64,000 bases of DNA from Bilabrum cf. latius (Eukaryota). The translations under genes and the position numbers were made by a program. The notes below the pieces were generated by a model. The model saw only the letters and a list, made by a program, of their open reading frames with translations. It did not search any database and was not told the DNA's origin. The first letter of the stretch is position 1. Every line of letters begins with the position of its first letter. The stretch covers positions 620,001 through 684,000 of the forward strand of contig OZ237763.1 of assembly GCA_965178125.1 (NCBI GenBank). The letters are read 5' to 3'. Below, in pieces: positions 7,734 to 64,000 of this stretch.

Positions 7734-8832
7734 ATGGGCGCGAGTACCCCCGTTGCTTCCGTAGGAGATTCTCGTCGTGGCATGGCTATGTCGCTGCAGG
7801 ACTGTGAGACCCAAACGTGGTATGAATTGCTCCAAATATGAAAGAGGTATTGCTCGCGCCCATTGGAGGGCCAGACCCGAGTTTGCCGTTGATTTGGAAG
7901 CCGTTTAGCGAGTGGTCCAGCGCCGCAAACGTCCCACCGCCCCTCTTCAGAACTCCCCCGAACATGCACCCGCAGTGAGCAAGCGAATCAAGGCCACTAA
8001 GAACGTAGCAAAGCTGACAAACGTGATGAAGCTGGTGGCCTCTGCCAAGCTCAAGGCAGTGGAGCAGGCCCTCGCCGAGGCCAAGCCCTTCGGTGCCTCC
8101 CTCATGGAATCTGTGGCGCACCCCGCCCTTGAGATCGAGCCCGGCAGCGACGAGCTCCCTCTGGGCGAGCCCGTCCCCGGCTGCAAGCGCCTTGTTGTTA
8201 TCATGACCACGGACCGAGGGCTCTGCGGGTCGGTCAACTCATCGACCGTCAGGTACGCCAGGAACTACCTCGAGCAGAGGCAGGCCGCCGGGGAGAACAT
8301 CTCCCTTTTCATGCTCGGAGAGAAGTCCCGCGCCCAGCTGGCCAGGGATTTCCACGACGTCAGCGTGCACGCGATCGACCAGTGCTTCGACAAGGACCCG
8401 ATCTTCTCGATGGCCTCGTCCGTCGCGGAGAGGATCCTGCAGCACGATTTCGACGAGCTGACCATCTTCTACAACGAGTTTGTGAACGCTGCCTCCTTCA
8501 ACAACAGGCAGAGGACGTTCTCTAACATGAACAAGCAGGAGGACGGCGCCGAGATCCCCGAGCGGTTCGAGGGATACGAGTTCGAGCCCGAGCAGCCCGA
8601 CGTGGTGCTGCCCAACCTGATGGAGTACTCCGTGTCGGGGGCGCTCTTCTACACCATGCTGGAGAACCAGACCTGCGAGGTGTCCCAGCGAGTGACTGCC
8701 ATGGACAACGCCACCACCAACGCGCAGGACATGGTGGACAGGTTTACGCTCATGTTCAACAGGGCGCGCCAGGCCAAGATCACCACCGAGCTGACAGAGA
8801 TCATCTCCGGTGCAGAGTCCCTGGAGCAGTGA
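7734..8832 (+). CDS. ATP3: Mitochondrial F1 ATP synthase gamma subunit; intron 7804-7975; true start may lie further upstream
   Basis: Spliced MAMSLQDLSKRIKATKNVAKLTNVMKLVA, TDRGLCG, QRVTAMDNATTNA, FNRARQAKITTELTEIISGA; no TAG; TGA stop. Confidence 0.93.
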
Positions 8833-9165
8833 GCGGACGATCCACGCATGGATTGGGCCACAGCGGGGCCGTGTCACGTCGTGAGAGGAGAGGTGAAAAC
8901 AGGATGGGATCCCGGCTCGTGTGGCTGGCTGGGAGGTGCTCGGATTTCGTTGTGGTTTGCACTTGTGTAGGTTGTTATCGCGAGCAGATCATAGCAGAGG
9001 TAGCTACCAGACACTATCCTCAAGTTGATGATGTAGGCCTAGCTTGTCGCCTGTCGGTTCGGTTGCAACTTCGATGTCAAACCGCACGTAACTTTATCAA
9101 TCCGAAAAAGTGCGACTTTGTACGACACCAGTCCAACACGCTGGCTTGGCAGAGCTTTGGACATT

Positions 9166-12713: not shown

Positions 12714-14495
12714 TCAGTCCACAAGGGAGGGTCCGCCGCTGCCTGCCACTGCAACGCGGTCCTTTACCTCGGCATCACCTCTGCTGCCTTTGCCATCACC
12801 TGTACCTGGCGAATCGCGCCGCTCCTCCCGGCTGTCCCCACGCCGCTCCTCACGGCTGTCCCCACGCCGCTCCTCACGGCTGTCCCCACGCCGCTCCTCA
12901 CGACTGTCCCCACGCCGCTCCTCACGGCTGTCCCCACGCCGCTCCTCACGACTGTCCCCGCGCCGCTCCTCACGGCTGTCCCCGCGCCGCTCCTCACGGC
13001 TGTCCTCACGGCTGTCCCCGCGCCGCTCCTCACGGCTGTCCCCGCGCCGCTCCTCACGGCTGTCCCCGCGCCGCTCCTCACGGCTGTCCCCACGCCGCTC
13101 CTCACGGCTGTCCCCACGCCGCTCCTCACGGCTGTCCCCGCGCCGCTCCTCACGGCTGTCCCCGCGCCGCTCCTCACGGCTGTCCCCACGCCGCTCCTCA
13201 CGGCTGTCCTCACGGCTGTCCCCGCGCCGCTCCTCACGGCTGTCCCCGCGCCGCTCCTCACGGCTGTCCCCGCGCCGCTCCTCACGGCTGTCCCCACGCC
13301 GCACCTCACGGCTGTCCCCACGCCGCTCCTCACGGCTGTCCCCGCGCCGCTCCTCACGGCTGTCTCCACGCCGCTCCTCACGGCTGTCCCCGCGCCGCTC
13401 CTCACGGCTGTCCCCGCGCCGCTCCTCACGGCTGTCCCCACGCCGCTCCTCACGGCTGTCCCCACGCCGCTCCTCACGGCTGTCCCCACGCCGCTCCTCA
13501 CGGCTGTCCCCGCGCCGCTCCTCATGGCTGACCGCGCGCCTATCGTCCTCCCTGTAGCCGACGCGCCTATCGTCCTCCCTGTAGCCGCCGCGCCTATCGT
13601 CCTCCCTGTAGCCGCCGCGCCTATCGTCCTCCCTGTAGCCGACGCGCCTATCGTCCTCCCTGTAGCCGCCGCGTCTATCGTCCTCCCTGTAGCCGCCGCG
13701 CCTATCGTCCTCCCTGTAGCCGCCGCGCCTATCGTCCTCCCTGTAGCCGCCGCGTCTATCGTCCTCCCTGTAGCCGCCACGCCTCCAATCAACCCTGTCA
13801 TCCCACCTCCCCCTGGTATCGCGGCTGTACCTATCACGGGGTGCATACGCATAGTCACGCCGCCCCCTGTCGTCCTCGGCTCGCCGATATGAGCCCCCGG
13901 ACGCAGATGACTGGGAGTAGGCTGGCCGGGCCGGCCGTCGGTCCTAAGAGCTTGCTCTCGGTCTACCAGATGCTGTCCCGCTGCCTGAAAGCGATTTCAT
14001 CTCTTCAGCACTCTTTCTGCCTCCCTTTGCCCATTGAACAGTGAGAACACGGCTGCGAAAGATGTGAGAGCGTCTGAGTTCATTGCAGATTGCCCGGAAT
14101 ACACAAGCAGCCAACTTACGCATATCCTGAGGCACTCACCCACGAAATTCCTGCCCATCCATGCCCTTGAGAGCCAATTCTGCCTCTTCACTTGTCGCAA
14201 ATTCTACGTATCCGAACCCACGAAGCTGCGGCTACAGATAAACACAACGCTGCAGAGGACTTGTTGGACTGGGCCAACCTTCCCCTTTTGTATCAATTTC
14301 GTCCCCGAAAATTAAGTAGTAGATCAATATGCACCGACACATTCTCACCCGGTGGTTCCGTACATCTCGAGGAAGGTGAATGTCAGACACGGAACCAAAC
14401 TTCTTAAATGTGTCCATGACATCCTCCCTGGTGGTTCCGCGCGGAATAGGGCGGACGTGCAGCGAGAATGCCTGCTTAGCATTTCTTGCAGACAT
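12714..14495 (-). CDS. RRM splicing-factor-like protein (SRSF10/SCL-like) with long Arg/Asp/Glu repeat tail; introns 14226-14348, 14053-14139; in-frame TAG at 13944
   Basis: SLHVRPIP, FKKFGSVSDIHLPRD, RNP1 RGFGYVEF, LTVQWAKGGRKSAEEM, followed by YREDDRRGG and RRGDSREE repeats; TGA stop. Confidence 0.85.
12817..13523. repeat. 24-bp coding tandem repeat, roughly 29 copies (encodes RRGDSREE on the minus strand)
   Basis: Unit CGCCGCTCCTCACGGCTGTCCCC(A/G) read directly; two 12-bp half-unit interruptions preserve frame. Confidence 0.95.
13535..13778. repeat. 27-bp coding tandem repeat, 9 copies (encodes YREDDRR(G/V)G on the minus strand)
   Basis: Unit CTATCGTCCTCCCTGTAGCCG(C/A)CGCG(C/T) read directly. 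Confidence 0.95.
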
Positions 14496-25776: not shown

Positions 25777-25890
25777 ATTGATGTTTGTGACAGATTCCTG
25801 CGATATTTCGACGACCGCCGGGTGAACTGTATGATATGGTTGAAACACACAACAAAATGTGGATGATTGGTAGTTGGAGCCGCGTTCTTC

Positions 25891-26314
25891 ACGGCAGGAG
25901 TAGGCCCCGTTGAGTTGATTGAGCGGGCTACCTGGTCCGGCCTCCGTTTCCGTGGCCTTCCCTCGGCAGCCCAGGCTATTCAACCGGGTGTATTACTTGG
26001 ATTGACAATATACCATGACGAACAGTCCGCACGCAGTCCACACTGGACTCAGGCTGAGCTGCAAAGCCTGCAAGCTGGCATCCCAGCAAGCAGCCCAAAG
26101 CACGCTTCGAACCATCTTCGCCTTCACGGTGTCTGCGTGCGGGGTTTGTCCTAAAGACTGGCACTCTCTGCCGTAGTGTCCGGGGACCTTCCCGAAGCTT
26201 TTGGTCGGATACACGCTGCGAAACAACCAGCTGCGGCAAGAAGAGCAGCCCGGCGAGGCGATTCAGAGAGAACACGAGGCTCACTCCTCCTCTCCAAGTG
26301 GACCACTCCCGCCT
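25891..26314 (-). ncRNA. RMRP: RNase MRP RNA
   Basis: On the minus strand: CR-I GGGAAGGUCCCCGG (26193-26180); P8 hairpin GGCA-GAGAG-UGCC with GARAR loop (26172-26160); CR-IV-like AGUAAU; CR-V AACUCAACGGGGCCUACU that can form P4 with CR-I; P1 GGCGGGAG/CUCCUGCC; P2 CUUGGA/UCCAAG. Ends approximate. Confidence 0.88.
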
Positions 26315-27214
26315 GAAAAGCTGGAGCAGGCGCGGTACTCACAATTGATACACCACCCTAAAGTGGCGCCCGACAGCTCCACACACCCCTCTGCTGTAAA
26401 GAACGCAACTGAATTCGACCGCACAGGCCACAAATCTGTATTTCAGAAATCAAGGCGCAACAAAGGAATTCTGCGGACTCCACCGGCTGGGAGTTGCTCT
26501 GGGTACCCCACCATTCATTAGGGACAGGGTAAACCTGAAACCAACGTTTCCTATCCACCGCCCGTCGCTGGTGCGGTCGGCGGGCACCTCGGGTTGAACC
26601 ACGGGTACACGAGTTGACGGGGTATGCGTTGGTCTGCAGGCGCGCCTGGGCCCCCTCGAGTAGTCCATTGGCCCCTACATGGGCGTTGGAATCGGAGCAG
26701 GATTTCCCCAGCGCACGATTGCAGCGTCAAGGAAATCGACAGACAGGCTCGCATTCGCCGTGGCAGACGCAAAGGGCCTGTACCGCACCCCCCTCCCGCA
26801 CCCCCGCCAGCGACCTCGCAGCGTCCATCACGTAGTCGCTGGGATCCATCCACTCGCCTAGATCTAGCTTTTTCAGCTCCCAGCCCGTATGTGATGAGTG
26901 ATCCTCCACCAGGAAGGTCCCCGTGGCCCGGTCAGGCGGTCCACGAGCTCACAGGCGGTTCAAGGTGCTCGGTGTGGGTGGGTATGGGTGTGTGGGTGTG
27001 CAGGTGTGGGTGTGCAGGTGTGGGTGGGGATGAGAGTGGCCATCCTCGTACCAGGAAATCTTTGGTTCTATCTATTTTTCATTTGAGGCTTTGCCTAGCG
27101 CCTCGAAGGTGGTAAGGGCATCGACCCCTTGGGCAGCAGGACCCGTGCCCGTGGCTTATCAGCCAACGCCCGTCGACCTTGGCCACCTTCTGGTCTGACC
27201 GGCGGATCAAGCGA

Positions 27215-32936: not shown

Positions 32937-35900
32937 TTACTAAGGCACGTCCATGTCGCTCAATCTCCCTAGTACCTCCTCGATCACTGCCTTGCGCACT
33001 GGCTTCGTCAGCACCTCCTGCGCCCCGCAATCCACGAACCACCGCTGGTCCTCAGCCAGTGCATTCCCCGTCACGCCCACCACTGGCACCCGAGCGATGC
33101 ACCTGCGCCTGTCCCCTCGCATGGCCGCCACCATCTCGGGGCCCGTCATGCGCGGCATGGAAAAGTCAAGCAGCACCAGGTCGCAAGCCAAGCCCTCTCC
33201 CTTCTTCTCTCCTCGCCCCTTGCCTACCTCGTCAGCCAGGATCTGCAGAGCCCTCAGCCCGTCCTCGCCGTCCTCAGCCGCGAGCACGCGCACGTCTCCC
33301 AGACACGCCCTAACCAGTCGCTGCATGAACACCCTGTTAGTGCGGCTGTCGTCCACCACCAGGATGGTCCGTCTAGGGGAAGCAGCAGCGGGTGCCTCTG
33401 TGCCCAGAGCGGGTGCTGCTCGGCTCGTGCTGCTGGTGGTAGTGGCGGCAGCAGGCCCGTCCAATGTGCCTCCACCAAGCTTCACTTTGCGTTTACGTAC
33501 CACTCTTCGCTTCTTACTACTGATACTGTTGTCGTTGTTGCTACTCGTATCCTGCTCTGCACCGGATGCCACCCCAGTCCGTGCGTCGGTGATCTAGAGC
33601 CCAATACCGTTCGCCTGGTGGTCACCAGCCTGGAGTTCACTGGTCTTCCCTGCTGCGGCTGCAGCTGCGCCGCCACCACCGTAACCAATGTCACCATCAC
33701 GACCGGCGCCTTCTTGGATGAAGCGGTCCTGCAGACCCTCCCCATCAGATCCATGCTTCCCTCCACCATCCAGCGGTCGCGTCTCGCACTGCAGCCACAA
33801 GTAGAATATGCTGCCCACACCATACACGGAGGAAAAGCCCACGCAACCGCCGTGCAGCTTCAGCACAGATGCCGTGATGGCCAGTCCCAGCCCCGCCCCC
33901 TGTCCCTCTGCCGTCAGCACGCCCGAGTGCAGCGTCTCGAAGGGGGTGAAGACCTTGCCCCAGTCCTGGTGCTAGATCCCCGGACCCTCGTCAAATGCCC
34001 ACAGGCACAGCCCTAGCCGCTCGCCCGCCCCTTCGCCACAAGCATGGATCGACGACTCGGGGCCAGATCGGGGCATACCCAATGTCTCCGTCGCGTCCAG
34101 CCCTGCCTCCACCCAGGCCAGCGACTGTCTCCGTACCTCCGCTGCGTGCAGCTGCCGGTGATGCCGACACGTGTCTGTCGCCGAGTAACCCGTACCACAT
34201 GCGTCACCCTTGCCATCCGACTCCACCCGGAACTCGCAACGATCATGCATGCTATTTGCCGCCGGGCCGTCAGACTGCTCTTGCTCGATGCCGCCAGCGC
34301 TCCTATCACCCACCACACCGCCAAGAGCCACGCGCCGCAGCTTGTCACACAGCGAGACCGAAAGCTCCAGCCTCGCGCGTTCCCAGTCCTCCTTCCGCCA
34401 CAGGTACGGCGGGCAGGACGATGCGCCCAGCAGCACACGAGGCCGCGCCGACGACATGCCTGATGCTGCAGGTGCGTCCGCCAGCCGATGCACCAATCGC
34501 TCGTGCGGCCGTGACCACTTCAATGCGTTCGATGTGAAGTTGTACAGTGCCCCGCGCAGCCGAACGGCATCACACATCACCTGCATGCGATCCAGTCCCC
34601 GGCCACTGTGCAGCACCAGATCCACGCCCATTCCGTCCGCCTGCGACTGGAACGTCCGTCGGGTATCTGTCAGGATGGACGGCAGCAGGCGCACCCACCG
34701 CTTGTCGATCTGGAAGCGCCCCGACTCGATGTGTTCCATGTCCAGGATGTCATTCAGCGTGGTCTGCATGGACTCCGCGGCGGCCTCCAGCGAGGGCATC
34801 GTCTCGGCCAATGTCTCTGCGGCCTCACGTACATCTGCATGCCCGTCCTCGCCGGAGCTTGCAGCAGAGACAGGCAACCCATCGCAGGCGCCCTCTTGAA
34901 TGGCTTGCCTGGCCAGCTTGGTGGCTTCCTGGCAGAAGTCTAGCCCGATGGCCATGGAGTTCAGAGGCACCCTGCACTCGTGCGAGAGAAACCGCAGCCT
35001 GGACTGCAGGGCGGCCTTCTGCCTGAAGGCTTGCTGCATGGCCTGCTGCAGAGAGGTGGAGGTCTGTGACAGCTAGAATATCATCAGCAGAATGATCATG
35101 CGCAGGAAGAGCTGTGTCGTTCGTTCTATGACGTAGCGAAGAGCAAATGACTGAGACGCCTTCGGCCACTCCACAGTGAACAGGTCCGGCGTGGATACGT
35201 CTTGCAGCTCCTCGGCACAAGGAAAAACAGCCTCGATTCCCGTGAGTCTGGCGTATGCACACGGGCACAGATCGTACGTGTTTGGCTAGTACGTAATAAG
35301 AAAGTTCGAGATGCCCATTGGGGCTAGCCCAAGCAGGATTAGGGCCAACTTCCACACGAATGCCAGAACCTCGGCTTGGTCTACGATCGGAGACAGGCTC
35401 TCTGGGCTGTCGGCGGAGTCTGCAGTGGTGCCATCGGTAAGGTGCTTGGATTCACCACTAGCCAATTGGTCCTGTATAGCGAAAGAGCTGCGACGTCTAG
35501 CTGAACACACCGAGGTCCGAAGCACTAGCGACGGTGGTGTGCAGGATGAGACCGCAGCCGCAACAACCGAATCCACCCAACGGCCACAGCCGAATGGCAT
35601 ATCCTGTTGCATGTGGCTGTATTCGAGCCTGCCAGATAATCTATGGTGGCTTGTATTCGAAGTATTTGCGGCAGACGCAGTAGAACTGCAGGCTTGACCC
35701 GCGAAGAAGTCGTCAACTTGGTGCAAGCACGAGTAGTACCGGCTTGTACATGAGCTGCTGGGCCCTGTGTCACTGACCAGTAAGCCTTGCATGAGGTCGT
35801 ACTTTTGCTATGCCTCTTTCTGTGTCGCGTCCATCCCTGTCACAGGCGTAAATATGAATGTTGCGAAAGCTATCGCACTTGCTACTGTGTGAGCTACACC

Positions 35901-37292
35901 GAACAGGGCGAAGAGCCAGGCCCACGCAACCGAGCCAGCAGAGACTGCCATGCCATCCTGAATTGCATCCACGCCTACATCCGCAGGAATAGCAACTGTA
36001 GTTGTATTGTCACTCGGGACATGCCAGGGCCAGGTGTCCCTGCTGCCAGCGAAAGAGGTATGGTTGGAGTCCGACCGAGAGGCGGCCGCTTGCGCTAGGG
36101 CAGCCTCTGCATGTGCCACCTCGAGCAGGCAAACTGTGGGCAAGTCTGCGGTCAGTACTTGATTGGAAAGTGCTGCCTGCATAGATACTCCAAAGATCTG
36201 CATGAACCTGGACCGTTCCCCGGGGTTGGTGAACCTATCTGACTAGATGGCCGCCAAGGCTTGTTGCCCGCTGATGCCACCGTCGGTGGACCCAAATACG
36301 TCAGCGGCACGACCCATGGACAGCAACCAGAGGGGCTAACCGTCGTGACCCCTCCAGTAAAGTGGAACGCTTCCACCTTGCTCCCAGTCCGGCGCTATCG
36401 CTGCATCGCTGCCGTTCCTGGCAGCAGCTGCCTGCCATTCGGACAGTGCAGATCGACCGCCTGACACGGCCGATAGCAGTGCATTACGGTTCAGCACCCA
36501 CCCCGCTCCACATAATCCCAGGTATCCCCAGTAGACGACAGAAAACCCCCCTAGAATGACGCAGGTCCTGCAGGACTTGGACTTGATCTCGTGGGCTGGG
36601 TGCCGCGACACAGACCCCCCCACTAGCACCAGCGACACATATGACAGAAACAAGAAGGTTGCTATCACCCAGGTCTCTCCGGTGGACATTAAGATAATAT
36701 TATCTGCCGTGAATGCTGCTCGAATATCTAGAACCGACATTTCGTTCGACAGACGCCCGAGCAGCGCAAGTGATGTGGACCAGATGGTGGACGGATGCAT
36801 TCCAAACAGCAAAGCGGAACCAGATCTCAACTCTCCACCAGTCTGCATCGGTGGGATATGAACGAACTGAAAGTCTGCGATCAGTATCCCTGAGGCAAGC
36901 AACAGCAGCCATGCATGCGCAACCCCTTGCGACCAAACAAATCCTCTCAAGGTTGCGATGCACACATTCATCGCTGCAAGGAAGAAAACCAGCACAATAA
37001 CTATAAAGTATATATCTCCCATTGATCCGAGTGAGCTTTGCGCCGCAGCAATAATATTGACCTGCCCGCGACTCCCTGGAGGGACAGGCATTTGCAGCTG
37101 CTAAAGCAGCATTGTCGTTGAAGAGCCGACATCAAATACACGTTCACCCCCGTGAACGTCTTGTAAAATCACAATTGCAAGTACTGTCACACAAAATACT
37201 GTGACGCTGATAACTGTGCTGCTGCATATCAATGGATGCGTACCTGCATCGCTGATTCCTTGCTTGCCATCTGATCGCTGTTTATCTATCAT
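32937..37292 (-). CDS. Membrane-bound hybrid histidine kinase, copy A; TAG at 37101, 36336, 36243, 35808, 35286, 35073, 33972, 33594, 32940; TAA stop
   Basis: Multi-TM N-terminus; H box FLSHECRVPLN; N box NFTSNALK; G1 DEGPGI; F box VFTPF; G2 GAGLGLAI; receiver ILVVDD..LLDFSMPRMTG..TGNA..KP. Confidence 0.88.
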
Positions 37293-40200
37293 TCGTAATC
37301 GGATACAGCTGCAAATAAAATCTAGTAGCAGTTAAATAAACCGTGCAGACTGGAATGGTGCTGCTTAGAATACAACTTTCAGTTGAGAGAGAGTGAGAAC
37401 AAATCCAGTACGCCGGTGGGTTCGAGAGAGGGTTCAGAAGCCAGCTTCCGGTAGATGCAATTATCAGTGAATCAAACCGCCAGGCCATATCCAAATGATT
37501 TTATACAGCAGAAAAGGCTGCCAGTGGAGTCCAGAACAAGCTTTGGGGCGTTTCAAGTACTATGTGCGTGGTCCGTCGTTGGGATGACGTTAGCTTGTGT
37601 AGTGGCTCTCGTAGTCCTATTAGCTTTCGAAATATACACTGAAAGTAATATTCTTTACACTGGGCGTACCCGCGAGTTGATGCAACGTCGACTAGCCATG
37701 CCTACGCCGGCTGCCAGTGGTGATTTGCCGTTGATTGCTGCTACACAGGGCTCATTGGGGTCAATGGGTGACATATACGCTACATTAATTGTCACTGTGT
37801 TTAGTATGACTGTTTTGAACGTGTATTGGGCGATGCATTACGAAGGCGCTGCTTCTCTTGCCGGAGCGCACGCGATTCTGCAACTGGCTGCATCCGTGAT
37901 GCTATTCGCCGATTTTCGCTTTGTCCATTTGCCCCCCTCGGCAAGTTCTAGCTCATGGCGATCTAGTGCGGCTGCAATTTACGGCATGTATCCAGCAGGC
38001 ATCTGGAAAAACTCGATCGTGATGGTCAGGAAGCTGTTGAGCACGCCATCGGTCACAGTGCTCGACATAAAGCAGTCTTTTCTCATCGACGATCAGTTGC
38101 TCTTTGCTGCCGGAGAGACCTGGGTGATTGTAACGTTCCTGTTTATTGGCTATTTATCACTCGTGCTGGTTGGTGGTTCCGTGTCGCCCGCACCCAAGCG
38201 TGAGATCCAAGCCAAAGTGTGCCGTACTAGCGTAATTATCATCGGGTTTGCGGTTGTGTACTGGGGATATTTAGCGCTTTGCAATTTAGGCTGGATCTTA
38301 CAGCGAGATGCGACCCTTTCCGCGATCGAGGCGGGCAGGTTACAGCTTGCTCAGCTTTCTGCTTCCCCCGGTCGGGTCGTGAGCACAGCCTGGCATGCGG
38401 GAATGGAGCGGCAGTACATGCGCGGTGCTGACGGCCAGCCTATCTGGATGTTAGCCATGGATCGGGCGGCCGAACTGCTCGGGTCACCCGACGGCTCCAT
38501 TACTCCGACTGAGGCTGCTGGCCTTGTCAGCAACCTCACAGCTAAAGTCACGCCAGCTGCGGTGCTGGAGCAGTACCGGCAGAGCCAGGGCACTGCAATG
38601 GAAGGGGCACTCATGAATGGACTTATTGCTTCTGACAGAATTTCGATGTGCTTGCTCGAAGCCGCACACGCTGAATCAGTGCTGGCTGCTGGTGCAGCCC
38701 GGTTACCTGAGCCTGCCGGACATTGGAACGAATCAAGCAACAACTTCATACTTCATAACCAGAGTAGCTTTGTATCGACAATTCAAGGTGGCGTTTAGCT
38801 GAGTTAGTCCTCTAGGTATGTAGCATGGGTATATGCTCTCGGGGGGTTGACACATGGTGCTGCGGCACTGGTTGCCTTGATCACTTTCGTCTTCACGCCT
38901 GTGATTGGGATGGATGCACAGCAGAAAAGCGCATTGAGGCAGTACGATGAAATGAAGTAGGAAGGAAATACCGAAAGCAATGGTACCGCTTGGCCTTTGC
39001 GGTGCTACTTTGTTTGCCTGCAAGGTATAGATGAGTACTGCGGAGCTTGGTCACCGGCTGGCCAATCTGCCCAAACCCCTCAACTCACCACAAGTAGTGC
39101 GATTCCCAGCCTTCGAAACGGCAGTTCTCAAAGTGCACAGCATGAGCAGGGTATAAAACCGCCTACTTGGGGCGGGTGCATTCACCAGGTGCTGTCAGCT
39201 GCTCTCGCGGCCTGCAACCACCCAGCTGGATGCTGCAGGTGCAACCACACGTCGAGCGTGTTAAAGAAAAGATTTCTGCAACCACGCACAGTGTTGGATG
39301 CGATTAAGCCGCGCGAAAATAATAGCGATGACGGAAATGGCTCCAATCTCGATGGCTTGTTTCCTCTCGTGGACAGGTCGGAAATGTTCGCATTCGCCAT
39401 GAAGCTGGCACTCGTGCTGCTCGGGCTAGCTCCTGTTGGAATGGCAACAGTCGTAACATCGACGCCAGGAAATACATACAAAGCATGTTCATGTGCCTAC
39501 GCCAGACTCACAGGAATCGAGGCTGTTTTTCCTTGTGCCGAGGAGCTGCAGGACGTATCCACGCCGGACCTGTTCACTGTGGAGTGGCCTAGAGCAATTA
39601 AAGCTCATGCAGCATTGTATGTCACAGAACGAACGACACAGCTCTTCTTGCGCATGATCATTCTGCTGATGATATTCTAGCTGTCACAGACCTCCACCTC
39701 TCTGCAGCGGGCAATGCAGCAAGCCTTCAGGCAGAAGGCCGCCCTGCAGTCCAGGCTGCGGTTTCTCTCGCACGAGTGCAGGGTGCCTCTGAACTCCATG
39801 GCCATTGGGCTAGACTTCTGCCAGGAAGCCACCAAGCTGGCCAGGCAAGCCATTCAAGAGGGCGCCTGCGATGGGTTGCCTGTCTCTGCTGCAAGCTCCG
39901 GCGAGGACGGGCATGCAGATGTACGTGAGGCTGCAGAGACATTGGCCGAGACGATGCCCTCGCTGGAGGCCGCCGCGGAGTCCATGCAGACCACGCTGAA
40001 TGACATCCTGGACATGGAACACATCGAGTCAGGACGCTTCCAGATCGACAAGCGGTGGGTGCGCCTGCTGCCGTCCATCCTGACAGATACCCGACGGACG
40101 TTCCAGTCGCAGGCGGACGGGATGGGCGTGGATCTGGTGCTGCACAGTGGCCGGGGACTGGATCGCATGCAGGTGATGTGTGATGCCGTTCGGCTGCGCG

Positions 40201-41785
40201 GGGCACTGTACAACTTCACATCGAACGCATTGAAGTGGTCACGGCCGCACGAGCGATTGGTGCATCGGCTGGCGGACGCACCTGCAGCATCAGGCATGTC
40301 GTCGGCGCGGCCTCGTGTGCTGCTGGGCGCATCGTCCTGCCCGCCGTACCTGTGGCGGAAGGAGGACTGGGAACGCGCGAGGCTGGAGCTTTCGGTCTCG
40401 CTGTGTGACAAGCTGCAGCGCGTGGCTCTTGGCGGTGTGGTGGGTGATAGGAGCGCTGGCGGCATCGAGCAAGAGCAGTCTGACGGCCCAGCGGCAAATA
40501 GCATGCATGATCGTTGCGAGTTCCGGGTGGAGTCGGATGGCAAGGATGACGCATGTGGTACGGGTTACTCGGCGACAGACACGTGTTGGCATCACCAGCA
40601 GCTGCACGCAGCGGAGGTACGGAGACAGTCGCTGGCCTGGGTGGAGGCAGGGCTGGACGCGACGGAGACATTGGGTATGTCCCGATCTGGCCCCGAGTCG
40701 TCGATCCATGCTAGTGGCGAAGGGGCGGGCGAGCGGCTAGGGCTGTGCCTGTGGGCATTTGACGAGGGTCCGGGGATCTAGCGCCAGGACTGGGGCAAGG
40801 TCTTCACCCCCTTCGAGACGCTGCACTCGGGCGTCCTCACGGCGGAGGGACAGGGGGCGGGGCTGGGACTGGCCATCACGGCATCTGTGCTGAAGCTGCA
40901 CGGCGGTTGCGTGGGCTTTTCCTCCGTGTATGGTGTGGGCAGCATATTCTACCTGTGGCTGCAGTGCGAGACGCGGCCGCTGGATGGTGGAGGGAAGCAT
41001 GGATCTGATGGGGAGGGTCTGCAGGATCGCTTCATTCAAGAAGGTGCCGGTCGTGACGGTGACATTGGTTACGGTGGTGGCGGCGCAGCTGCAGCCGCAG
41101 CAGGGCAGACCAGTGACCTCCAGGCTGGTGACCACCAGGCGAACGGTATTGGGCTCTAGATCACCGACTCACGGACTGGGGTGGCATCCGGTGCAGAGCA
41201 AGATACGAGTAACACCAACGACAGTAGTATCAGTAATAAGAAGCGAAGAGTGGTACGTAAACGCAAAGTGAAGCTTGGTGGAGGCACATTGGACGGGCCT
41301 GCTGCCGCCACTACCACCAGCAGCACGAGCCGAGCAGCACCCGCTCTGGGCACAGAGGCACCCGCTGCTGCTTCCCCTAGACGGACCATCCTGGTGGTGG
41401 ACGACAGCCGCACTAACAGGGTGTTCATGCAGCGACTGGTTAGGGCATGTCTGGGAGACGTGCGCGTGCTCGCAGCTGAGGACGGCGAGGACGGGCTGAG
41501 GGCTCTGCAGATCCTGGCTGACGAGGTGGGCAAGGGGCGAGGGGAGAAGAAGGGAGAGGGCTTGGCTTGCGACCTGGTGCTACTTGACTTTTCCATGCCG
41601 CGCATGACGGGCCCCGAGATGGTGGCGGCCATGCGAGGGGACAGGCGCAGGTGCATCGCTCGGGTGCCAGTGGTGGGCGTGACGGGGAATGCACTGGCTG
41701 AGGACCAGCGGTGGTTCGTGGATTGCGGGGCGCAGGAGGTGCTGACGAAGCCAGTGCGCAAGGCAGTGATCGAGGAGGTACTAGG
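32970..41785. repeat. Long inverted repeat: arms ~32970-35262 and ~39492-41785 (kinase and receiver halves of the two HK genes)
   Basis: ORF pairs 33972-35039(-)/39714-40781(+) and 32940-33572(-)/41181-41825(+) are nearly identical, with only scattered substitutions. Confidence 0.93.
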
Positions 41786-41825
41786 AAGACTGGAAAAGCT
41801 GCGAGGATCCATTCGATTACATTGA
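37455..41825 (+). CDS. Membrane-bound hybrid histidine kinase, copy B; TAG at 38796, 38805, 38958, 39678, 40779, 41157
   Basis: Same architecture and motifs as copy A in one frame; TGA stop; start is 37455 or a later ATG. Confidence 0.88.
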
Positions 41826-42104: not shown

Positions 42105-45100
42105 ATGGAAGGCGGATTATTTGTCGACGTAAGAAAGAGTCTTGTTAAGCATAGTAGATATTCCCAATTCTGTGCGTTCATGGTGTGGATCGAGAATTCA
42201 TGGTCGTCGTCGGTACTGCTGTTTGCTTCATGAAAATGTCGAGTGCTAGCATTTTTTAGAGGATGCACAAATGTCTCCGTGGTAGAATATATGTTGCTAT
42301 ACTCATCATCTCTATTCAGCAGGACAAAGCAGTTGCCCAGCGGTATGCGGCCTCGTCGTAGGCTTTGTCCAGTGTGGGCAAGGAGTACCGAGCTGATGGC
42401 GAGACGGAATCATTCCTGGCAAAGAGGCTGCAACTCCTCTCTCAATGCACACCATGGGGAACGAATGTTATAAGCTTTGTGGAAAGTACCATGCACGATG
42501 CCCTTCAGCAGCGCAAGCCGGGCGGGTTCCTAGCGGATGGGACCAGCGAGCTCCAGTTCGAGGCCGACGCGGGCCAGCTCTACAGTCGAGTGGCTGGGGT
42601 CCGTGTGTCTCCGGAGGGAGATCGGGTGCAAATACTGTTGGATAAGACAGCGAGCAGGAAAGAAGCGCTTCTTTCGGCAGCCGACGTGCGAGTCGTGGCA
42701 AAGCACTTTGTGACTGACGGGAACGTGTCGCTTTTCCCACTCACGAAGGACCTTCCGCAGCCCCTTCAGGAGGTGCAGGTGAATCCTCCCTGTCTGGCAG
42801 GCACTGCAATTGCAAGCACAATGCTGCAAGCTAGCCTGATCCTGCGTAACCTCGCCATGGGGCAGGAGATGTCTGCCAAGGCACCCTTTGCCATGCGGCC
42901 GGCTGCCGTGATGCTCGCGGCACGGGGATTATCAGACCATGAGCTGAGCTGCTTGCGCTCCATTCCAACACGAGAACAGGAGGATTCAGATAAGGCCAAA
43001 AGAGAAGCTCGCCCACCCCCGCCACAGCCCGTCGCTGGGTCATTGTGGTGGGACGTGCACGGCGAGGTGCCGGTGGAAAGGCACGAGGAGGAAGCCGGTG
43101 GAGGCATAAGCTGCACCATCGGTACCCCTGCCCTGTGCGTGCAATTCAAGGCGTTCCTGGAAGAGGCTAAGAAGGAATGCGTCAAGGATGCTGCCAGTGC
43201 TGCATGTATGGCGGACGGTTCCCCGCGAAAGCAGAGCGCCCACGGAGGAGCAGATGATGGCTCGGCGGCAGCAACCAAAGGAGCAGTGTCAGGTGCCGGT
43301 GCCCGGAAGGCTGTACCACAAGGGGCGGCAAGGGATCCTCCAGCTGCGCCTGAAGGGGTCCGTAGCAGCGGCACAGGCGTGCATCCTAGGCGCGTGCTGC
43401 TGCTGGGTCGCGCTCTTGCCGACTGCAACAACGGCGGTATGGTCAAGATGGATGACCCACACGACACGGCAATCGCCAGATTTGCACGCGACATAAATGA
43501 TAGCATCGATGTGATGTCCAGGACCTTTCCTCAGTTGGCCCGACTGCGCGAGCTGCATAGGCTGTTTGCTGCGTTCCGGGTCGCAAAGCAGCTTGCCAGC
43601 GATGCAGTTGATCCAGAGAGACAGAGAGACTGGGAAAACATACCAGCTGTCTTGAGGGGTGTGTGCTGCGACTTCAATCCGAGCGATGGAATGCTGCGTG
43701 CCGTATCTAGCGTTGAAGAGGAGTAGGCTGCTGCAAGCAAGGGTGCAAAGTCGCCCATTCAGCAGAGGTTGGTTCCATTCGCCATCGGACTGACGGGTAG
43801 ATACGATGGACTTGCAGCACAGGCAAGCAAAGGCATCGATGGCTGGGAGCCCGACGTAGGCAGCGTGGTGGACGTACAGGACAGGTACTTCCACTATTAC
43901 ACGGCAGAGGTGCTTGCAGTTAGTGCGGACAGTGCTGGTGCCCCGCTATATTTGGTTCACTTCGATGGATGGAACCACGTAAATGACGAGTGGGTTGGTG
44001 TCGAGAGAATGGCACCAATCCACACGCACACATTACGTGGAGCCCGCAGCACGGGCCCAAATAGCGGGGTGCTGGCGCATCCAGAGATGGGGACACAGGT
44101 AGAGTACAAGATCGGAAACATGGGCGACGGCACGCCGTTCTATACGCCAGCTCGCGTGCAGACCTGCAGTGGCCGCGGCGAGAGGGCTACCGTTCTGCTC
44201 GAGATGACTGCGGACTGTTTCAATCCAAGCGACAACAAGCGTGTAGTCGCAAGGGGTTCGAACGTCTACGCCGGACTGGGTTTGATCAGAATGGCCACTG
44301 CCGGCGACTCGCCGACCGAGAGTGACATTCGAGGTGGCATTTCAGGCGGAAGGGTTACACCCGGGCAGCGCGTTGATTTCATGATGGATGCATTCGCATG
44401 GTCCAAGGGAGTTGTCCTCAAAACTGATGCGCGCAGCAACAAAGCTCTGGCTCGCCCGCGTGGGCTAGGTCCAGACTGGGACCACTGGGTGCCATGTGAT
44501 CTCAGCTGTATGGCACCGGAGGGTTCTCGCACCCAGTGGCGCCAAGAGAGCCGGGGGCCGCTCGCGGCGCCATTGTTTGGCGCGCCGGTCTGGCTGAGAT
44601 CTTGCGGTGGGCCCATGGGAACGGGCTTCGAGGAGGGCATGGTAGAGTGCACTGTGGCAAAGGTAGAAGGTGAGGGGGGCCAGGCCAAAGTGTGGGCTCG
44701 GGAAGTATCCAAATCCAAATCCGCAGCCGACCCCGGCGTCTGCGTTACAATGAGTGATGGCCGTCTTCGCCTGCGCAATGCATCCAAATTCCTGCTCGCA
44801 CCAAGCTCTGACGTGTTGGGAGAAACTGACGGCTCCGGTCTGCGAGTCGGGCAGTCCGTGGACGTGCGCGACGACAGTTTTGCGTGGTTCACCAGCACGA
44901 TCGAGGCGGTGGAGAGGCAAGAGGTCGCGGCAAAGGCAGGATCAGGACCAGATGAAGCGCCCGGGCCTGCAAGGGGTCATGATAAGAAGGTGGCCATCAA
45001 GGTCAGATACGATGGGTGGAGCAGATTCTGGACAGAGCGCATTGAGTTGCCGTCCCCTCGAGTGAAGCCTCTGCACACCCACACCCCTGCTGGCTTCCGC

Positions 45101-45385
45101 TCGACCAGAGCCGCACCTGCCATCAAGTGCCCCGAGCCTGGCGTGACGGTGCATGTGGCAATCAAGGGCACTTTGGTGGAAGCGAAGGTGCTTAAATGCG
45201 AAGGAGACACGTGTCTGTTCCAGCGCGTTGCTGCGGGACCAGGGTTCGACTCATTGCACGAACCGGCTGGCAGCATCATCAAGCTGCCTTTGCCCCTGAA
45301 GTACGGCTCTATCCGGGACTCGCTGGCAATGGGAGCTGCCGTGAACAGATGCACACTGGGAGCATGGTAGTCGATCGAGGGTTGA
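42105..45385 (+). CDS. Protein with an uncharacterised N-terminal domain and three Tudor-knot/Agenet-like repeats; probable intron 42129-42319; TAG at 42359, 43724, 45368
   Basis: Repeats VGSVVDVQD..YLVHFDGWNHVNDEWV..RMAPIHTHT, PGQRVDF..WDHWV..CMAP, VGQSVDVRD..KVRYDGWSRFWTE..RVKPLHTHT; TGA stop at 45383. Confidence 0.75.
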
Positions 45386-45495
45386 GTTATAACCTTATGG
45401 GGCAGGAGGGCGGGGGCACGAGCGCAGCGGGTCCACCGGCAAACAGTGCTTGCGAGTTATTACATTGAAATTTGTTTCAGCATTCATCCCTTTAT

Positions 45496-58199: not shown

Positions 58200-61100
58200 T
58201 CACGCTCTCGACCCGAGCGGCGCAGCCGGCGAGAAGGACGCTGCGCTCCGCAGCAGGTCCGCGCGACTCCCTGCGCGCTGCCCGGTCAGGCCACCAGCCT
58301 GAGGGCCAGGGCCCAGGCGGACCCGCACTCGGGGAACATGGGGGCTGGAGGCACCCGCCGTGGTGACGCCCCCCTCGGTCTCCTCGATGGAGGAAGTGGC
58401 AGACCCGGTGCTGGCGGCGTCTTCGTCATCCCCTCCTCCTGTTCCCTGGCTGGACACGTCCCCGTCGCTCTCCACCTCCACGTCGATGCCGTCACCCACC
58501 GAGGGCATCGCGCCGCCGGAGGCGGACTGGGGGTTCACGCGGTTCTTGTCATTGAGAGCCACACGCAGCTGCACGGCCACGGCAATCGCCGCCACCATGC
58601 CCACGAGCGCCAGCGCCGCCACCACCACGGCACCAACGAGCACAGGCGACACGGCAGAGGGGCCGGGCGCGGAGGCACCGCCGTTGGACCCGCTGCCCTC
58701 GCCGTCCTGGGAGTCGTCACCCGCACCATCGTTCCCTGCACCCTGTTCTGGCTGTTCCCCGATCTCCACGACCAGCCTGTCGGTCAGCTGCACGCCTGCG
58801 CTGGAGCTGGCCGCCTCAAGCGCAGCCTCCGCGGCGGCCCTCTGGCTTGCAGGCACGATCACGATGGAGGCCTCGTTCCCGTCACCGTCCTCAGCGTTGA
58901 GGAACACCTGGGCGTCCACGCCTGCCGCCTGCACGGTGGCAGTCAGCTGGTAGGCAGCAGCGGCCTCGGCAGTGTTGAGCGAGGAGAAGACGGTCGCGTC
59001 GCCGGTCTCGGCAGCCACCTGCACCTGCATAATGGTGAACACGCCGGCGGTGCTGGCGGCGAACCGAGATGAAACGCCCAGGGCGGCGGGTGATCCGGTG
59101 CTGGCCGAAGACACGCCGCCGCGGATGGAGGACGCAGAAGCGGCGCCGCCGGAGGAGGAGGAACCAGTGCCTGCGGGCTCCAGATCGGCCCTGGTGATGG
59201 GCAGGCGGGTGTAGCCGAAGCTCCTGGTGCTGATGTGCCTCAGGTCAGCGTCCGACTCGAGCAGGTAGGCGGAGATGCGCACGTCCCTCTTGTTCCTCAG
59301 GGAACCCACGGGCACCACTGCGATCGTCTCGGTGCACCGCTGCAGCACCAGCTGGGCGGACCAGTCGATGGAGGAGTGCCTCGTCTCGCGCAGCACGACG
59401 GTCACAGAGTCAGGGTCGAACCGCTCGTCGGAGCAGTACCGGAGGGTGAGGGCGATGGACCCGTCGGCCAGGCGGTTGGTGTCTCCCACCACAGTCTCAA
59501 AGTCCACAAGGGCAGAGTTGGTGCGAGTCGGGGCGTAGTTCGCCACCGGGTAGCCGGGGATGATCTCCGCCGCTTCGAAGGTGGGCACGCAGTTGCGGCC
59601 GAAGCTCACCTCCTCCCGGCGGGTCTGCACCCAGTTGCCCTCGCGCGAGCTGTACGTGGATAGCGCGAACCGCAGGTCGTTCTTGTTCCTAAAGGTAGAC
59701 CGGGGGCCGAGCACGAGCACCTTGGATTGCCCGTTCTCGAGCTCGACGACCTTGTTGAAGCTCACGCTCGAGTGCCTAGACTCGGACACCAGGAAGCGCT
59801 TGCTGTCCGGCCCGAACCGGTCAAAGTAGCTAACACGCACCGCCACGTCGCACTCCTCCACGGAGCGGCCGTTGTTGTCCACCCACCCGGTCCATCCGGG
59901 GGCGCGCCTGTCCTTCCAGATGGTCTCGATGCGGCCGCCCCACGAGGACCACGAATCGTACCCTTTGGTCTCCGAGGGGACGAAGGCCGCCAGGTCGCTC
60001 TCATCGCTGTAGTCGTTCGTGCAGTGCCGGCCAATGTCAAGGCTGCGAGTGGTGCGCCATTCTGCCCTCCAGGTGTCGTAGTACTGCAGGCTGATCCTGA
60101 TGTCGTTCTTATTGCGGAAATCTGCCCTGCTGCCGAGGTTCAGCAGCGTCTCCTGCCCGTTGGTCAGGGTGACTTGGAAGGCCCGCTGGATGGAAGAGTG
60201 CCTGGTCTCGCGCACCACGAACGTCCGCTTCTCGCCCTCGCAGCCAGAGGGGTCGTTGAAGGCCACGCGCACCACCACGTCGCATCCGGGGGAGCGGTTG
60301 CGGCCGTACACGGCTGAGATCGTGCCCCTGCTCCAGGTCCTCTCCACGGTGGAGCGTGGGAACTCGGCGGACACCGCGGCCGCCTCGGGGAACGTCTCCA
60401 GGTCCCTGCTGCCGAGGTCGATCGACATGCGCTGGCGCCAGTTGCCGCGGACGTTCCACCACATCGAGTCGTAGAACAGCCCGAACCGCACGTCGTTCTT
60501 ACGCCCCAGGTCCTCCCTGGAGCCCATGTCGATGATGGCGGAGAAACCGTTCTGCAGCGTTACCTGCCTCTCAACATCAACGCTGCTGTGCCTGGTCTCC
60601 CTCACGCGGAAGGTGGTCTAAGAGGGCCCGTCGGGATCGTAGTAGGCCACGCGCATGACGGCGCGCCCCTCGGCCGACCGGCGGTTGCCGTACAAGGCCT
60701 CTAGCCTGCCGCCCTGGCCGGTCACCTGGTCCCACCGGAGATCGACGGGCTGCAGCGTGGAGCGGTCTGCCTCCGGGGGCGAGCTAAGGCACTGCCGGCC
60801 GATGCTTAGCGAGCGGCACGTCTGGATCCAGCCGCCGCGGCCGTCGGGTCGCAGCATGGTGATCCTCACATCGTTCTTGTTGCCGAAAGTGGCCCTGTCG
60901 CCGAGGTCCACCAGAGCGGTTGTGCCGAGCTCCATGGTGATCTGTCTCGCGAGCGGAATGCTGCTGTGCCGGGTCTCGCGCAGCAAGAATGTCGCAGTGG
61001 GAGCAAGCTCGGCAGTATCCCCGGCGTACGACACGCGCACGATGACGCGGCAGTTCTCGTCCCGCTGGTTGTTGGCGATTGCGTACTCGAGGCGCCCCCA

Positions 61101-64000
61101 GGAGCCCGTGTACCTCGACGTCTCCTCCACCTCGATCACGTTGGCCGCTTGGACCTCCTCCACGCAGTCGCGGCCGATGTCCACGGCGCGGCCGATGGAG
61201 TGCCACTCAGAGTCGCTGGAGGACGGGCGCTCGGCCGGCTGCTCCGTGCTGGACCACCGCCCGTACCTGTACAGCTGGTACCGCTGGTCGTTCTTGCGCT
61301 GCTTGCCCAGCACGAGCTGCAGCTCCTCACCGTCCGTGGCGTGGAACACGTACGCCAAGTTGACCGAGCTGTGCCTCGTTTCCTTGATCATGAACCAGCC
61401 CTCGCCACCGCTCTCAGAGCGGTCTCGCGTGGACCACACGAACTGCACCTGAGCCATGCACTGCGCGTTCTTGCGGTTGTTGCTGAACGAGTTGACGATG
61501 TAGGGGCCCGAGTTGCCCTCGGAGCGGTAGGGGCGGGGGTACCCCTCCACCAGCCGGTCCGCGCACTCCCTGTCCTCGCGACCAGTGCACCCGCCCACCT
61601 CGTACTGGTCGTACCCGCAGGTCGTGCAGGCGGCGCACTCCCTGTTCTGGAAGATGTCCTCCTCGTCGTCTGGGTGAGAGCCCCGGCAGCTCTTGGTCTC
61701 GTACTCCGAACCGGACCTGCACGTGGAGCACTCGAGGCACCAGTCGGCCTGCGCGAGCTGGCTGGCGTCGTAGGTGTCGGCCCTGCACACGGGGTTCTTG
61801 TACTCGCTGCTGGACCCGCACGGTGCGCAGAAGCACCTCGTGCCCACGGTGGACGTGCCTCCGATCCTGGTGAAGCTGTCGGCCTCAGAGGCGGTACCCA
61901 GGCGGTAGGCCAGGCCGGTCACTGCCCTGTTGCCGCCGTTGATCTTCAACACCTCGAGGAAGCCTTGCTGACCCTGGGCCAGCACCACGTCGGCCTGGAA
62001 GCCGTTGTCTAGGCCCTGCACGCGGAACTCGCGGTGAGGCTCGATCATGTCCCTGTACCACGCGGGCTTGTCGCCCTGGTACCATGCCACGCGCAGTGTG
62101 GACTCGCAGCTGTCGCCGCGCGCCCGCCCCTGGGTCTGCATGAGCGTCAGCTTGCCGTTCTCGAAGCCGTTCCTCGTCTCTGCGTTGGGCCCGATGGAGA
62201 AGTCATACTCGTCCGTGTTTCCAGCGCCGGAGATGGCCACGCACCGCTGCGGCTGGTCAGCGGCACAGCTGCCCAGGGGCGCGAAGCCGGCCTCGCAGGT
62301 GATCTCGGGGCACAGCACTGCCACACGGAAGCGGATGGTATCAGTGGCGCTGCCATCCTCGGCAACGAGCTGCATCTCAATCTGGTAGCTGCCCGCACCG
62401 CCGTCGAAGACGGACGCGTCGGCCAGCACGACCTGCGCCGTGCTGGGCTCGTCACCGTCACCGGGCGTGATGCGGATCTCCAAGCCGTCGGTCTCGAAGC
62501 AACCATCCGCTTCACAGGCGCCATCTGTCACGCCGCTGGGCTGCCCGGGCTTGAGGTGCGTGCAGTGGCACGTCAGCACGCCGTCCACAGTCACGGGATC
62601 GGGGTGGGAGAAGGCCACAGACGCGCCCACGATGGCGCTGCCCACGGCTGCGTTCTTGCGGATGGAGGCGGGAATGCCGTCCAGGGCGGGCTGGGACAGG
62701 ACGACGGGGGCCTCGACCACGTCCAGCACTGTCAGGGTCACGGTCACGGTGTCGGCGTCGGCCAGAGCCACCTTGCCGTCCAGCGCCGCCACGGTCACCG
62801 TGACGATGTTGCTGCCCCCGTTGGCCACCATGGCCTCGAAGTCCTCGCCGGAGCCAGCGTAGCTGATCGTGGTGACGCCAGCGCTGGTGCTGATCTGGAA
62901 GAGAGCAGCGCTGTCGCCGACCACCTGGTACGTGACCTCGTCGCTCCTGTCGCGGTCCGTGGCATCCAGCTCGCCCAGGACCACCGGGCCAGCCACGTTC
63001 TCCTCGATGCTGGCGGCGATGTCACCGCTCTGGAACTCGGGGTCGAACTCAAGGTTGCGCACGGTGAAGGAGAACCCGATCGAGGCCTTGAGGTTGCCGC
63101 TGTCGGTGGCCACCACGGTGGGGGACTGGGTCTGGGGCAAGCGGACCACGTCCTCGAACGCGATGGGCCCGCCGGTCATGGACACGATGCCCTCTGAGGA
63201 GATGGTCAGCGGGTAGGCGGCCGCGATCTGGTCGGGGATGCGCAGGGTAATGGTGAGAGAGTCGCCCGCGTCCTGGTCACGGAACAAGGCGCTCATGTCA
63301 AGCCCCGAGGAGGACTGCAGGTCAGTGCTCTGCTCGTCCACGCTGAAAGCGATCGAGGAACGGAGCCTCCTCGGCGCCTCGTTCACGTCCTGCACCTCGA
63401 TTCGGATGAGCACGCTGGCAGGCCCCGGGGCGCCAGGGCCCTCATTGGCAAGGTCTGGGTCACCGACCGTAAGCCTGTACACGAACACGTTGCCAGAGGG
63501 ACTCTCGAAGTCGAACCCGTCAGAATTGGAGCGCTGCTCCAGGATGCCCAGGTCGTTCAGGAACTCGACCTGATCCGTGGGCTCGTCGTTGGGGGTCTGC
63601 CCCTGCTGCGGCACGAACTCGATCGACCAATCGATGAAGAGCTGATCGGAGAAACCGTCGGGGTCCCGGAAGATATTGTCCGCGGCTGCGATCTGCAGGG
63701 GGAAATTGGGCACGTCGTTCTCGTCGACCTGGTACACGATGGGCGTCTGCACCCCGGGGATGATCACCACTTGCTCGTCCACGTCCCTGATCTCGATCTC
63801 GAGCAGGGTGGCGGACGAGGCCAGCCGACGGCGGAAGGAAGCATGCCTCTCGGAGTCGCCGCCCAGGCTGGCGAGCCTGCGGGAGGCGGGCTGGTTGTCT
63901 TCCACCACCAGGCGGAGGAGCCTGCGATCCTGCATGTCAGACGATCCGGAGAAGTCTGTCTCGAAGTCGAGGAGGGCGCCGCACCCCTCCCCGCTGGGCT
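58200..64000 (-). CDS. Large type I membrane protein (5'-partial): cadherin-like repeats, TNFR-like Cys repeats, six unrecognised repeats, one TM helix; in-frame TAG at 60618
   Basis: Cadherin motifs VDEN, DPD, DFE, VQDVNEAP, IEEN..ATDRD; Cys repeats CSTC..EYETKSC..NRECAACTTC; TM VLVGAVVVAALALVGMVAAIAVAV; TGA stop. Confidence 0.85.

Follow-up and report, generated by a model that had tools for sequence, protein, structure and literature searches.

TAG as a probable glutamine codon in nuclear genes of Bilabrum cf. latius

Two genes for putative hybrid histidine kinases, the head-to-head paralogues A and B, raise the question of what the codon TAG means in Bilabrum cf. latius. Copy A contains an in-frame TAG at a place where copy B has the glutamine codon CAG. 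Both genes lie in a stretch of 64,000 nucleotides (nt) of this organism (GCA_965178125.1, OZ237763.1, positions 620,001-684,000, forward strand), which is called the window below. The original prediction had paired the TAG at 36336-36338 with the CAG at about 38436, and had taken the exchange to be synonymous. The two copies were aligned with MAFFT, with TAG written as X, and 990 identical residues were obtained in 1430 aligned columns. The two codons shared one column in a well-conserved context, and all coordinates and peptides of the prediction were correct. Thus, in a proper alignment the TAG stayed opposite CAG, and not opposite another residue. The positions of this and all other features are collected in Table 1.

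It was analyzed how TAG is distributed over the window, and it was found within almost every long gene. With the standard stops the longest open reading frames (ORFs) had 1127, 939, and 806 amino acids, and with TAG read through they had 2227, 1933, 1569, 1509, and 1465 amino acids. When TAA was dropped as a stop instead, the ORF lengths were nearly unchanged. Among 25 non-overlapping ORFs defined in this way with TAG read through, 21 ended with TGA and four with TAA. Fourteen confident nuclear genes with 15157 codons contained 50 in-frame TAG, but no TAA and no TGA, zero values that are partly built in because these two codons delimited the ORFs. The two other frames of the same genes contained 106 and 92 TAG.

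Homologous proteins of solved structure could be aligned through the TAGs without a gap. In the ORC1-like protein 'LPCRD-X-EREDI' faced 'LPCREREFENI' and 'LPCREQEFQDI', and in the alpha-galactosidase 'GHEA-X-DAKFFAS' was also gap-free. In the kinases 'GPGI-X-RQDWGKVFTPF' contains TAG 40779 directly after the GPGI motif, which we take to be the G1 box, and the distance to the F of 'VFTPF' was the same as in solved kinases. TAG is in-frame, specific, reproducible, and conserved, and in collinear alignments each TAG takes the place of one residue.

The shared part of the two kinase genes was informative in another way. The inverted-repeat arms differ in 41 of 724 codons, 25 synonymously and 16 nonsynonymously. 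The 42 base changes are distributed over codon positions 1, 2, and 3 as 7, 10, and 25. As 25 of the 42 changes are at third positions, both copies have been evolving as coding sequence across the TAGs that they share. The original prediction had listed three such TAGs (35073/39678, 33972/40779, and 33594/41157), and had regarded their presence in both copies as an argument against sequencing error. The three pairs do exist. However, they are not independent of each other, because all of them are located inside the inverted repeat with its 98% identity, i.e., they have been shared by descent or gene conversion.

That random sequencing error is not the source of the TAGs was borne out by other data. 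Contigs from two other studies (X5 and X6) matched 35782-37346, 37483-39542, and 37470-39082 with 0 differences, including the TAGs in question, and this excludes that the TAGs are errors. A further X5 contig skipped 42129-42322, which has GT..AG borders, and then matched 42323-45429, again with 0 differences. It retained the TAGs at 42359, 43724, and 45368, and the ATG at 42105 opens a reading frame across the splice joint. The view that the TAGs are sequencing or assembly errors, or mutations of pseudogenes, in an organism with the standard code has in its favor that TAG is a stop there, and nothing more. It is opposed by the restriction of the interruptions to TAG (50 against 0 and 0), by the identical TAGs in contigs from other runs and studies, by TAGs that relatives have retained at the orthologous positions, and by the third-position preference of the repeat arms, and it has become extremely improbable. 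Just as improbable is that the TAGs lie within short in-frame introns or are removed by RNA editing. GT..AG introns of 172-224 nt do exist in the organism, but the alignments with homologues have no gap at the TAGs, and the contig with one intron spliced out keeps its three TAGs unchanged. We regard it as nearly certain that TAG is a sense codon in this organism.

Which residue does TAG specify? The kinase pair had been proposed as an internal control for this question. The aligned column itself was confirmed, and it has the best-conserved surroundings of all TAG columns that the two copies do not share. As a control, however, the pair is weak. The other unshared TAGs faced CGT, CTC, GCA, GCT, TTG, GGC, CCA, and CAT, and glutamine was thus found in only one of nine unshared columns (one of eight without the unalignable C-terminal tail). 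BLOSUM62 sums over eight of the nine columns were 3 for alanine and -3 for glutamine. The pair was therefore rejected as a decoder of TAG because it is uninformative. The conclusion that TAG and CAG are interchangeable was retained, but it is carried by orthologues and by window-wide statistics, and not by the evidence that had been offered from the pair.

The first orthologue was found on a metagenome contig of 2973 nt, L001, which is collinear with positions 5345-8274 of the window at 77-80% nucleotide identity. Its alpha-galactosidase ORF has 492 codons with seven in-frame TAG and no other stop. The original prediction had proposed a codon alignment of further gene pairs, and the alignment of the window gene with that of L001 comprised 354 codons at 75% amino-acid identity. 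Seven codon pairs contained a TAG. Four of them were TAG/CAG pairs (6272, 5897, 5894, and 5771), for which the chance probability is about 5e-5, and one pair each was TAG/GAG, TAG/TTG, and TAG/AGC. The TAG at 6272 also faced glutamine in the three best of five solved homologues. In the first exon one further TAG of L001 faced arginine.

The next orthologues came from protein databases. P0121, a fragment of copy A of a relative with 94% identity, ends exactly before TAG codon 319 (36336), and P0122, a second such fragment, ends with '...GMDATQKEA' directly before TAG codon 495 (35808). Accordingly, these two stops are conserved in the relative. For copy B, a frame of a relative stops at the CAG at 38073, and P0124, on a contig with the same recorded length as that of P0123 (1259 nt), resumes downstream of this codon. 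Lastly, the gene at 10432-12573 contains eight in-frame TAG. It had no Pfam match, and from its sequence we read it as a putative GPI-transamidase-like gene. Orthologous fragments of this gene covered several of its TAGs (Table 1).

Thirteen orthologue comparisons, in which one side had a TAG or the stop of the relative, were thus available. The partner was glutamine in seven cases, glutamate in two, arginine in two, and leucine and serine in one case each. The probability of seven or more glutamines among 13 is about 4e-7, given that glutamine codons have a share of 4.3%. The BLOSUM62 sums over the 13 comparisons were 39 for glutamine, 21 for glutamate, and 14 for arginine. Tryptophan (TGG) and tyrosine (TAC/TAT) codons did not occur among the 13 partners; a dominance of such codons had been named as evidence against the exchange with CAG. 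Based on these comparisons, TAG very probably encodes glutamine.

Several observations weigh against this assignment or against the data on which it is based. In six of the 13 comparisons the partner was not glutamine. A TAG of L001 faced the glutamate at 6239, a position that is aspartate in all five solved homologues, and the TAG at 5522 faced leucine. Within the kinase pair, the well-aligned TAG codon 495 of copy A also faced leucine in copy B. The TAGs of the ABCG transporter faced M/T/M/T and L/I in solved homologues. P0121-P0126 are available as proteins only, and the stop is deduced from the end of the ORF, so that the type of stop codon is not visible; P0125-P0130 come without contig context, and the end of an ORF might equal the end of the contig. 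Lastly, that X5 represents RNA is a guess, because the run was flagged as 'probably DNA' and the spliced joint is the sole pointer; a search of sequencing runs listed no RNA run that contained the window.

These observations lead to the alternative that TAG is a sense codon for another residue, e.g., glutamate, arginine, or lysine, or that it is decoded ambiguously by near-cognate tRNAs. The two glutamates and two arginines among the 13 partners, the TAG of one relative at a conserved acidic position, and the arginine of the fly at the TAG column of ORC1 would be in accordance with it. But glutamine was the commonest partner and had the highest BLOSUM62 sum, TAG/CAG made up four of the seven codon pairs of the alpha-galactosidase, and one TAG was at a glutamine that is conserved in five of five solved homologues. 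In addition, partners of the GAG, TTG, and TCG type are one step away from TAG or CAG, and with an identity of only 75-81% between the genes they are compatible with ordinary replacements. We consider another residue unlikely. Distant homologues were variable and not decisive, i.e., R/Q was found at the TAG column of ORC1, A/P at that of the kinase, and M/T and L/I at those of the ABCG transporter. Two further sets of data were not used. The four TAGs of Utp14 are in low-complexity stretches that aligned poorly to solved Utp14, and for a relative with about 90% DNA identity in the runs X8 and X9, 40 of about 2130 differences were listed, none of them at a TAG site.

If TAG is read as glutamine, the role of TAA has to be clarified. 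The genes contain CAA and CAG in a ratio of 121:529, and with the same ratio of TAA to TAG our arithmetic predicts about 11 in-frame TAA. None was observed, and this indicates a code of the type in which only UAG is reassigned. The code in which both UAA and UAG specify glutamine (UAR=Gln, NCBI table 6) was considered and rejected, because there was no in-frame TAA in 15157 codons and read-through of TAA hardly extended the ORFs. The best reading is that UAG specifies glutamine and that UAA and UGA are stops, i.e., a known type of code in an apparently new lineage, and we hold it with good confidence.

A variant that would be compatible with UAG as a glutamine codon is a context-dependent code, in which UAG is read as glutamine inside genes and as a stop near their true ends. 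Codes with context-dependent stop and sense codons exist in Condylostoma, karyorelict ciliates, and Blastocrithidia. In two of 13 confident genes a TAG is located shortly before the terminal stop, and only about 0.3 would be expected by our arithmetic at 0.33% TAG per codon. These numbers are small, however, read-through of earlier TAG stops as far as the following TGA or TAA would give the same pattern, and in 11 of the 13 genes the last 50 codons are free of TAG. The two TAGs, at 32940 and 45368, may have remained from earlier TAG stops, or they may point to TAG termination near gene ends. A context-dependent code is thus a minor possibility.

The following mechanism would explain the results. 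In Bilabrum cf. latius and at least two species related to it, UAG would not serve as a general stop. A single amino acid, most probably glutamine, would be inserted at UAG, and translation would terminate at UGA and UAA. The TAG of copy A and the CAG of copy B would then differ by a C/T exchange at a glutamine position, which would be synonymous or nearly so. By analogy with described cases, decoding would be by a tRNA-Gln with the anticodon CUA, and eRF1 would no longer read UAG. Two negative results are to be set against this mechanism: a tRNA gene was found neither in the window nor in L001, and the eRF1 family had no match among the 19 scanned ORFs of the window.

In which kind of organism does this occur? 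The DNA of the window is nuclear and eukaryotic, GC-rich (about 61% G+C), gene-dense, and intron-poor. A Pfam scan, which took in 19 of the 25 ORFs with TAG read through and left out six short ones, revealed families in 13 of the 19, all of them typical of eukaryotic nuclear genes. These are an ABCG transporter, an ELO elongase, the alpha-galactosidase, a mitochondrial-type ATP synthase gamma, an ORC1-like protein with BAH and AAA domains, Utp14, LRR and IQ proteins, and both kinases. The best named match of ATP synthase gamma was Cafeteria roenbergensis with 58% identity. Judged from this one sequence, the closest named relative looks like the bicosoecid stramenopile Cafeteria; that the host is placed by a single protein with 58% identity counts against the placement. 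The Cafeteria genome has about 70% G+C, and in the available text of its description a non-standard code is described for its mitochondria only (10.1101/751586).

The assignment of UAG to glutamine corresponds to NCBI table 15. It was compared to known codes. According to the available text of a published overview, UAG alone specifies glutamine and UAA is kept as a stop in the fornicate Iotanema spirale and in the ciliates Protocruzia tuzeti, Hartmannula sinica, and Trochilia petrani (PMC11687900). The present case is the same in that UAG is found at glutamine positions, UAA is not reassigned, and the change is lineage-specific. It differs in its host, which is stramenopile-like (58% to Cafeteria) and has a mitochondrial ATP synthase gamma gene, and in its genome, which has about 61% GC and TGA as the main stop (21 of 25 ORFs). 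For phyllopharyngean ciliates the same text reports that UAA ends 87-98% of the genes, and for some ciliates with UAG=Gln a tRNA(CUA) is reported (PMC11687900). UAR=Gln codes are listed there for many ciliates, Hexamita, Streblomastix, ulvophycean algae, and Amoeboaphelidium (PMC11687900). In these cases a stop is captured for glutamine, as here, but the window has no in-frame TAA where about 11 are expected, and TAA ends four of the 25 ORFs. UAG is read as leucine in an uncultured rhizarian and in phyllopharyngean metagenome-assembled genomes from TARA and as serine in Scotinosphaera, as far as the available texts describe it (PMC11687900; PMC5304391). In these codes UAG alone is reassigned, as here, but leucine and serine were found once each in our comparisons, against seven glutamines. 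The TAG=Gln recoding of crAss-like phages, termed 'code 15' in the available part of the source (PMC9523058), concerns the same codon and residue. Unlike these phages, the window is cellular nuclear DNA with ORC1, Utp14, an RNase MRP RNA, and spliceosomal introns, and a search of viral contigs gave no match.

The code change is thus of a known kind; the lineage in which it occurs appears to be new, and at least three related species would share it. Full-text searches, with subscription journals outside their coverage, retrieved no nuclear code change in stramenopiles, and the list of UAG-only reassignments in the available text of PMC11687900 includes no stramenopile. The same text states that nuclear departures from the standard code are few, and that it is rarer still for UAG and UAA to differ in meaning (PMC11687900). 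A wider reading, which we favor slightly over its negation, would make this the first change of the nuclear code in stramenopiles. It would comprise at least three species of GC-rich, Cafeteria-like heterotrophic flagellates, in which UAG specifies glutamine, UGA is the main stop, and UAA is the second stop. The change would be recent, with TAG and CAG still swapping freely between sister species; earlier TAG stops might persist as read-through tails, or TAG might still terminate at the ends of genes.

If the reading of UAG as glutamine is true, it adds a further independent case, from a stramenopile lineage that is free-living and GC-rich. At such a GC content, the reassignment would not be predicted by the usual 'codon capture' account, which is based on AT pressure. 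Several related species are present in public reads, apparently with transcript data, and the lineage would therefore be a tractable system for stop capture where TGA dominates. There is also a practical aspect. Gene calling under the standard code fragments the proteins, and in the databases P0121-P0126 are such fragments, with their ends at TAG sites. Therefore, annotation pipelines for metagenomes under-call and mis-call this lineage.

Table 1. Codons, genes, and other elements of the window, ordered by subject.
Feature	Position	Strand	Remarks
Putative hybrid histidine kinase copy A	32937-37292	-	1451 codons when TAG is not counted as a stop; nine in-frame TAG; ends TAG-TAA
Putative hybrid histidine kinase copy B	37383/37455-41825	+	ATG at 37455; ends TGA
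TAG, copy A codon 319	36336-36338	-	YWRGHDG-TAG-PLWLLSMGRAA
CAG (Gln), copy B codon 352	38436-38438	+	YMRGADG-CAG-PIWMLAMDRAA
TAG, copy A codon 495	35808-35810	-	TTG in copy B
CAG, copy B, where the frame of a relative stops	38073-38075	+	P0123 (76% identical) ends '...VTVLDIK'
Inverted-repeat arm in copy A	32961-35135	-	2175 nt; 98% identical to 39618-41792; TAGs 35073, 33972, 33594
Inverted-repeat arm in copy B	39618-41792	+	2175 nt; TAGs 39678, 40779, 41157
Near-terminal TAG, copy A	32940-32942	-	1 codon before TAA
Near-terminal TAG, gene 42105-45385	45368-45370	+	5 codons before TGA
In-frame TAG, gene 42105-45385	43724-43726	+	On spliced, transcript-like X5 contig
In-frame TAG, alpha-galactosidase, 'GHEA-TAG-DAKFFAS'	6272-6274	-	CAG in L001; Q, Q, Q, V, I in 5 solved homologues
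GAG (Glu), alpha-galactosidase	6239-6241	-	TAG in L001; Asp in 5/5 solved homologues
Two adjacent CAG, alpha-galactosidase, 'RAQQRSH'	5894-5899	-	TAG-TAG in L001
CAG, alpha-galactosidase, 'AISQDD'	5771-5773	-	TAG in L001; Q in 5/5 solved homologues
In-frame TAG, alpha-galactosidase	5522-5524	-	TTG (Leu) in L001
TAG/AGC pair	5315		Codon alignment of window and L001
TAG residue 192, gene 10432-12573	11005-11007	+	Q in P0129 (78% identical)
TAG residue 388, gene 10432-12573	11593-11595	+	E in P0125 (81%); P0126 (99%) ends just before
TAG residue 406, gene 10432-12573			Deletion in P0125
TAG residue 467, gene 10432-12573	11830-11832	+	R in P0125 (81%); D in P0128 (46%)
TAG residue 502, gene 10432-12573	11935-11937	+	Closes Gln run 'QQQQQLQ-TAG-DG'; Q in P0125
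TAG residue 536, gene 10432-12573			P0125 fragment ends just before
GT..AG intron, alpha-galactosidase	6339-6562	-	224 nt; missing from relative L001
GT..AG intron, ATP synthase gamma	7804-7975	+	172 nt; spliced out in database protein P0001
GT..AG intron, gene 42105-45385	42129-42322	+	194 nt; skipped in X5 contig
RNase MRP RNA gene	25885-26243	-	Rfam RF00030; 64.6 bits; full model length

The domain structure of the two kinases was also analyzed. Copy B contains seven in-frame TAG, one directly before the ATG at 37455 and six after it. In both copies HATPase_c and Response_reg exceeded the Pfam cut-offs. For copy A the scores were 48.8 bits for Response_reg (cut-off 30.2) and 37 bits for HATPase_c (cut-off 26.4), the latter covering only positions 44-108 of the 111 profile positions. 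Hybrid histidine kinases have HisKA, HATPase_c, and a receiver on one chain, and the kinases of the window share HATPase_c and Response_reg with them. They differ in that HisKA was below the cut-off (19.9 bits in copy A, cut-off 26.9), a long insert is located within the ATPase domain, and the N-terminal approximately 700 residues match no family. The peptide 'SHECRVPLN', which is present in both copies, is presumably H-box-like. From its sequence the N-terminal part looks like a multi-pass membrane domain. A search of the ESM Atlas with this domain of copy B gave a best score of 0.78, under the threshold of 0.9, and the matches below the threshold are a mere lead to multi-pass membrane families. 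A contig scan with the same domain counted one stretch encoding a relative, but returned no locus.

The 5' halves of the kinase genes are far more diverged than the 98% identical 2.2 kb at the 3' side, and a stretch of 120 nt with 89% identity adjoins the repeat arms. For one repeat arm, the only one examined, the X5 read depth was 2-3 times that of the flanks. The 3' 2.2 kb were probably kept 98% alike by gene conversion, which would account for the three further TAGs that are common to both copies.

The Rfam scan of the window detected the RNase MRP RNA and nothing else. A 204-codon ORF (26006-26617, plus strand) overlies this gene and is probably spurious. Directly downstream of the ATP synthase gamma gene, at 8968-9042 on the plus strand, five TAG are present in 25 codons. 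This is probably untranslated sequence, and TAG would thus be frequent outside coding regions. Two repetitive regions were also observed, both on the minus strand. One, at 58200-63998, is an ORF of more than 1900 codons that leaves the window; it has a GC3 of 0.88, a single TAG, and repeated 'RETRHSS' modules, and it had no Pfam match. The other, at 12717-14135, is a long tandem array of repeats rich in Arg, Asp, and Glu (RGDSREER and GGYREDDR units), which had no family match and has one in-frame TAG upstream.

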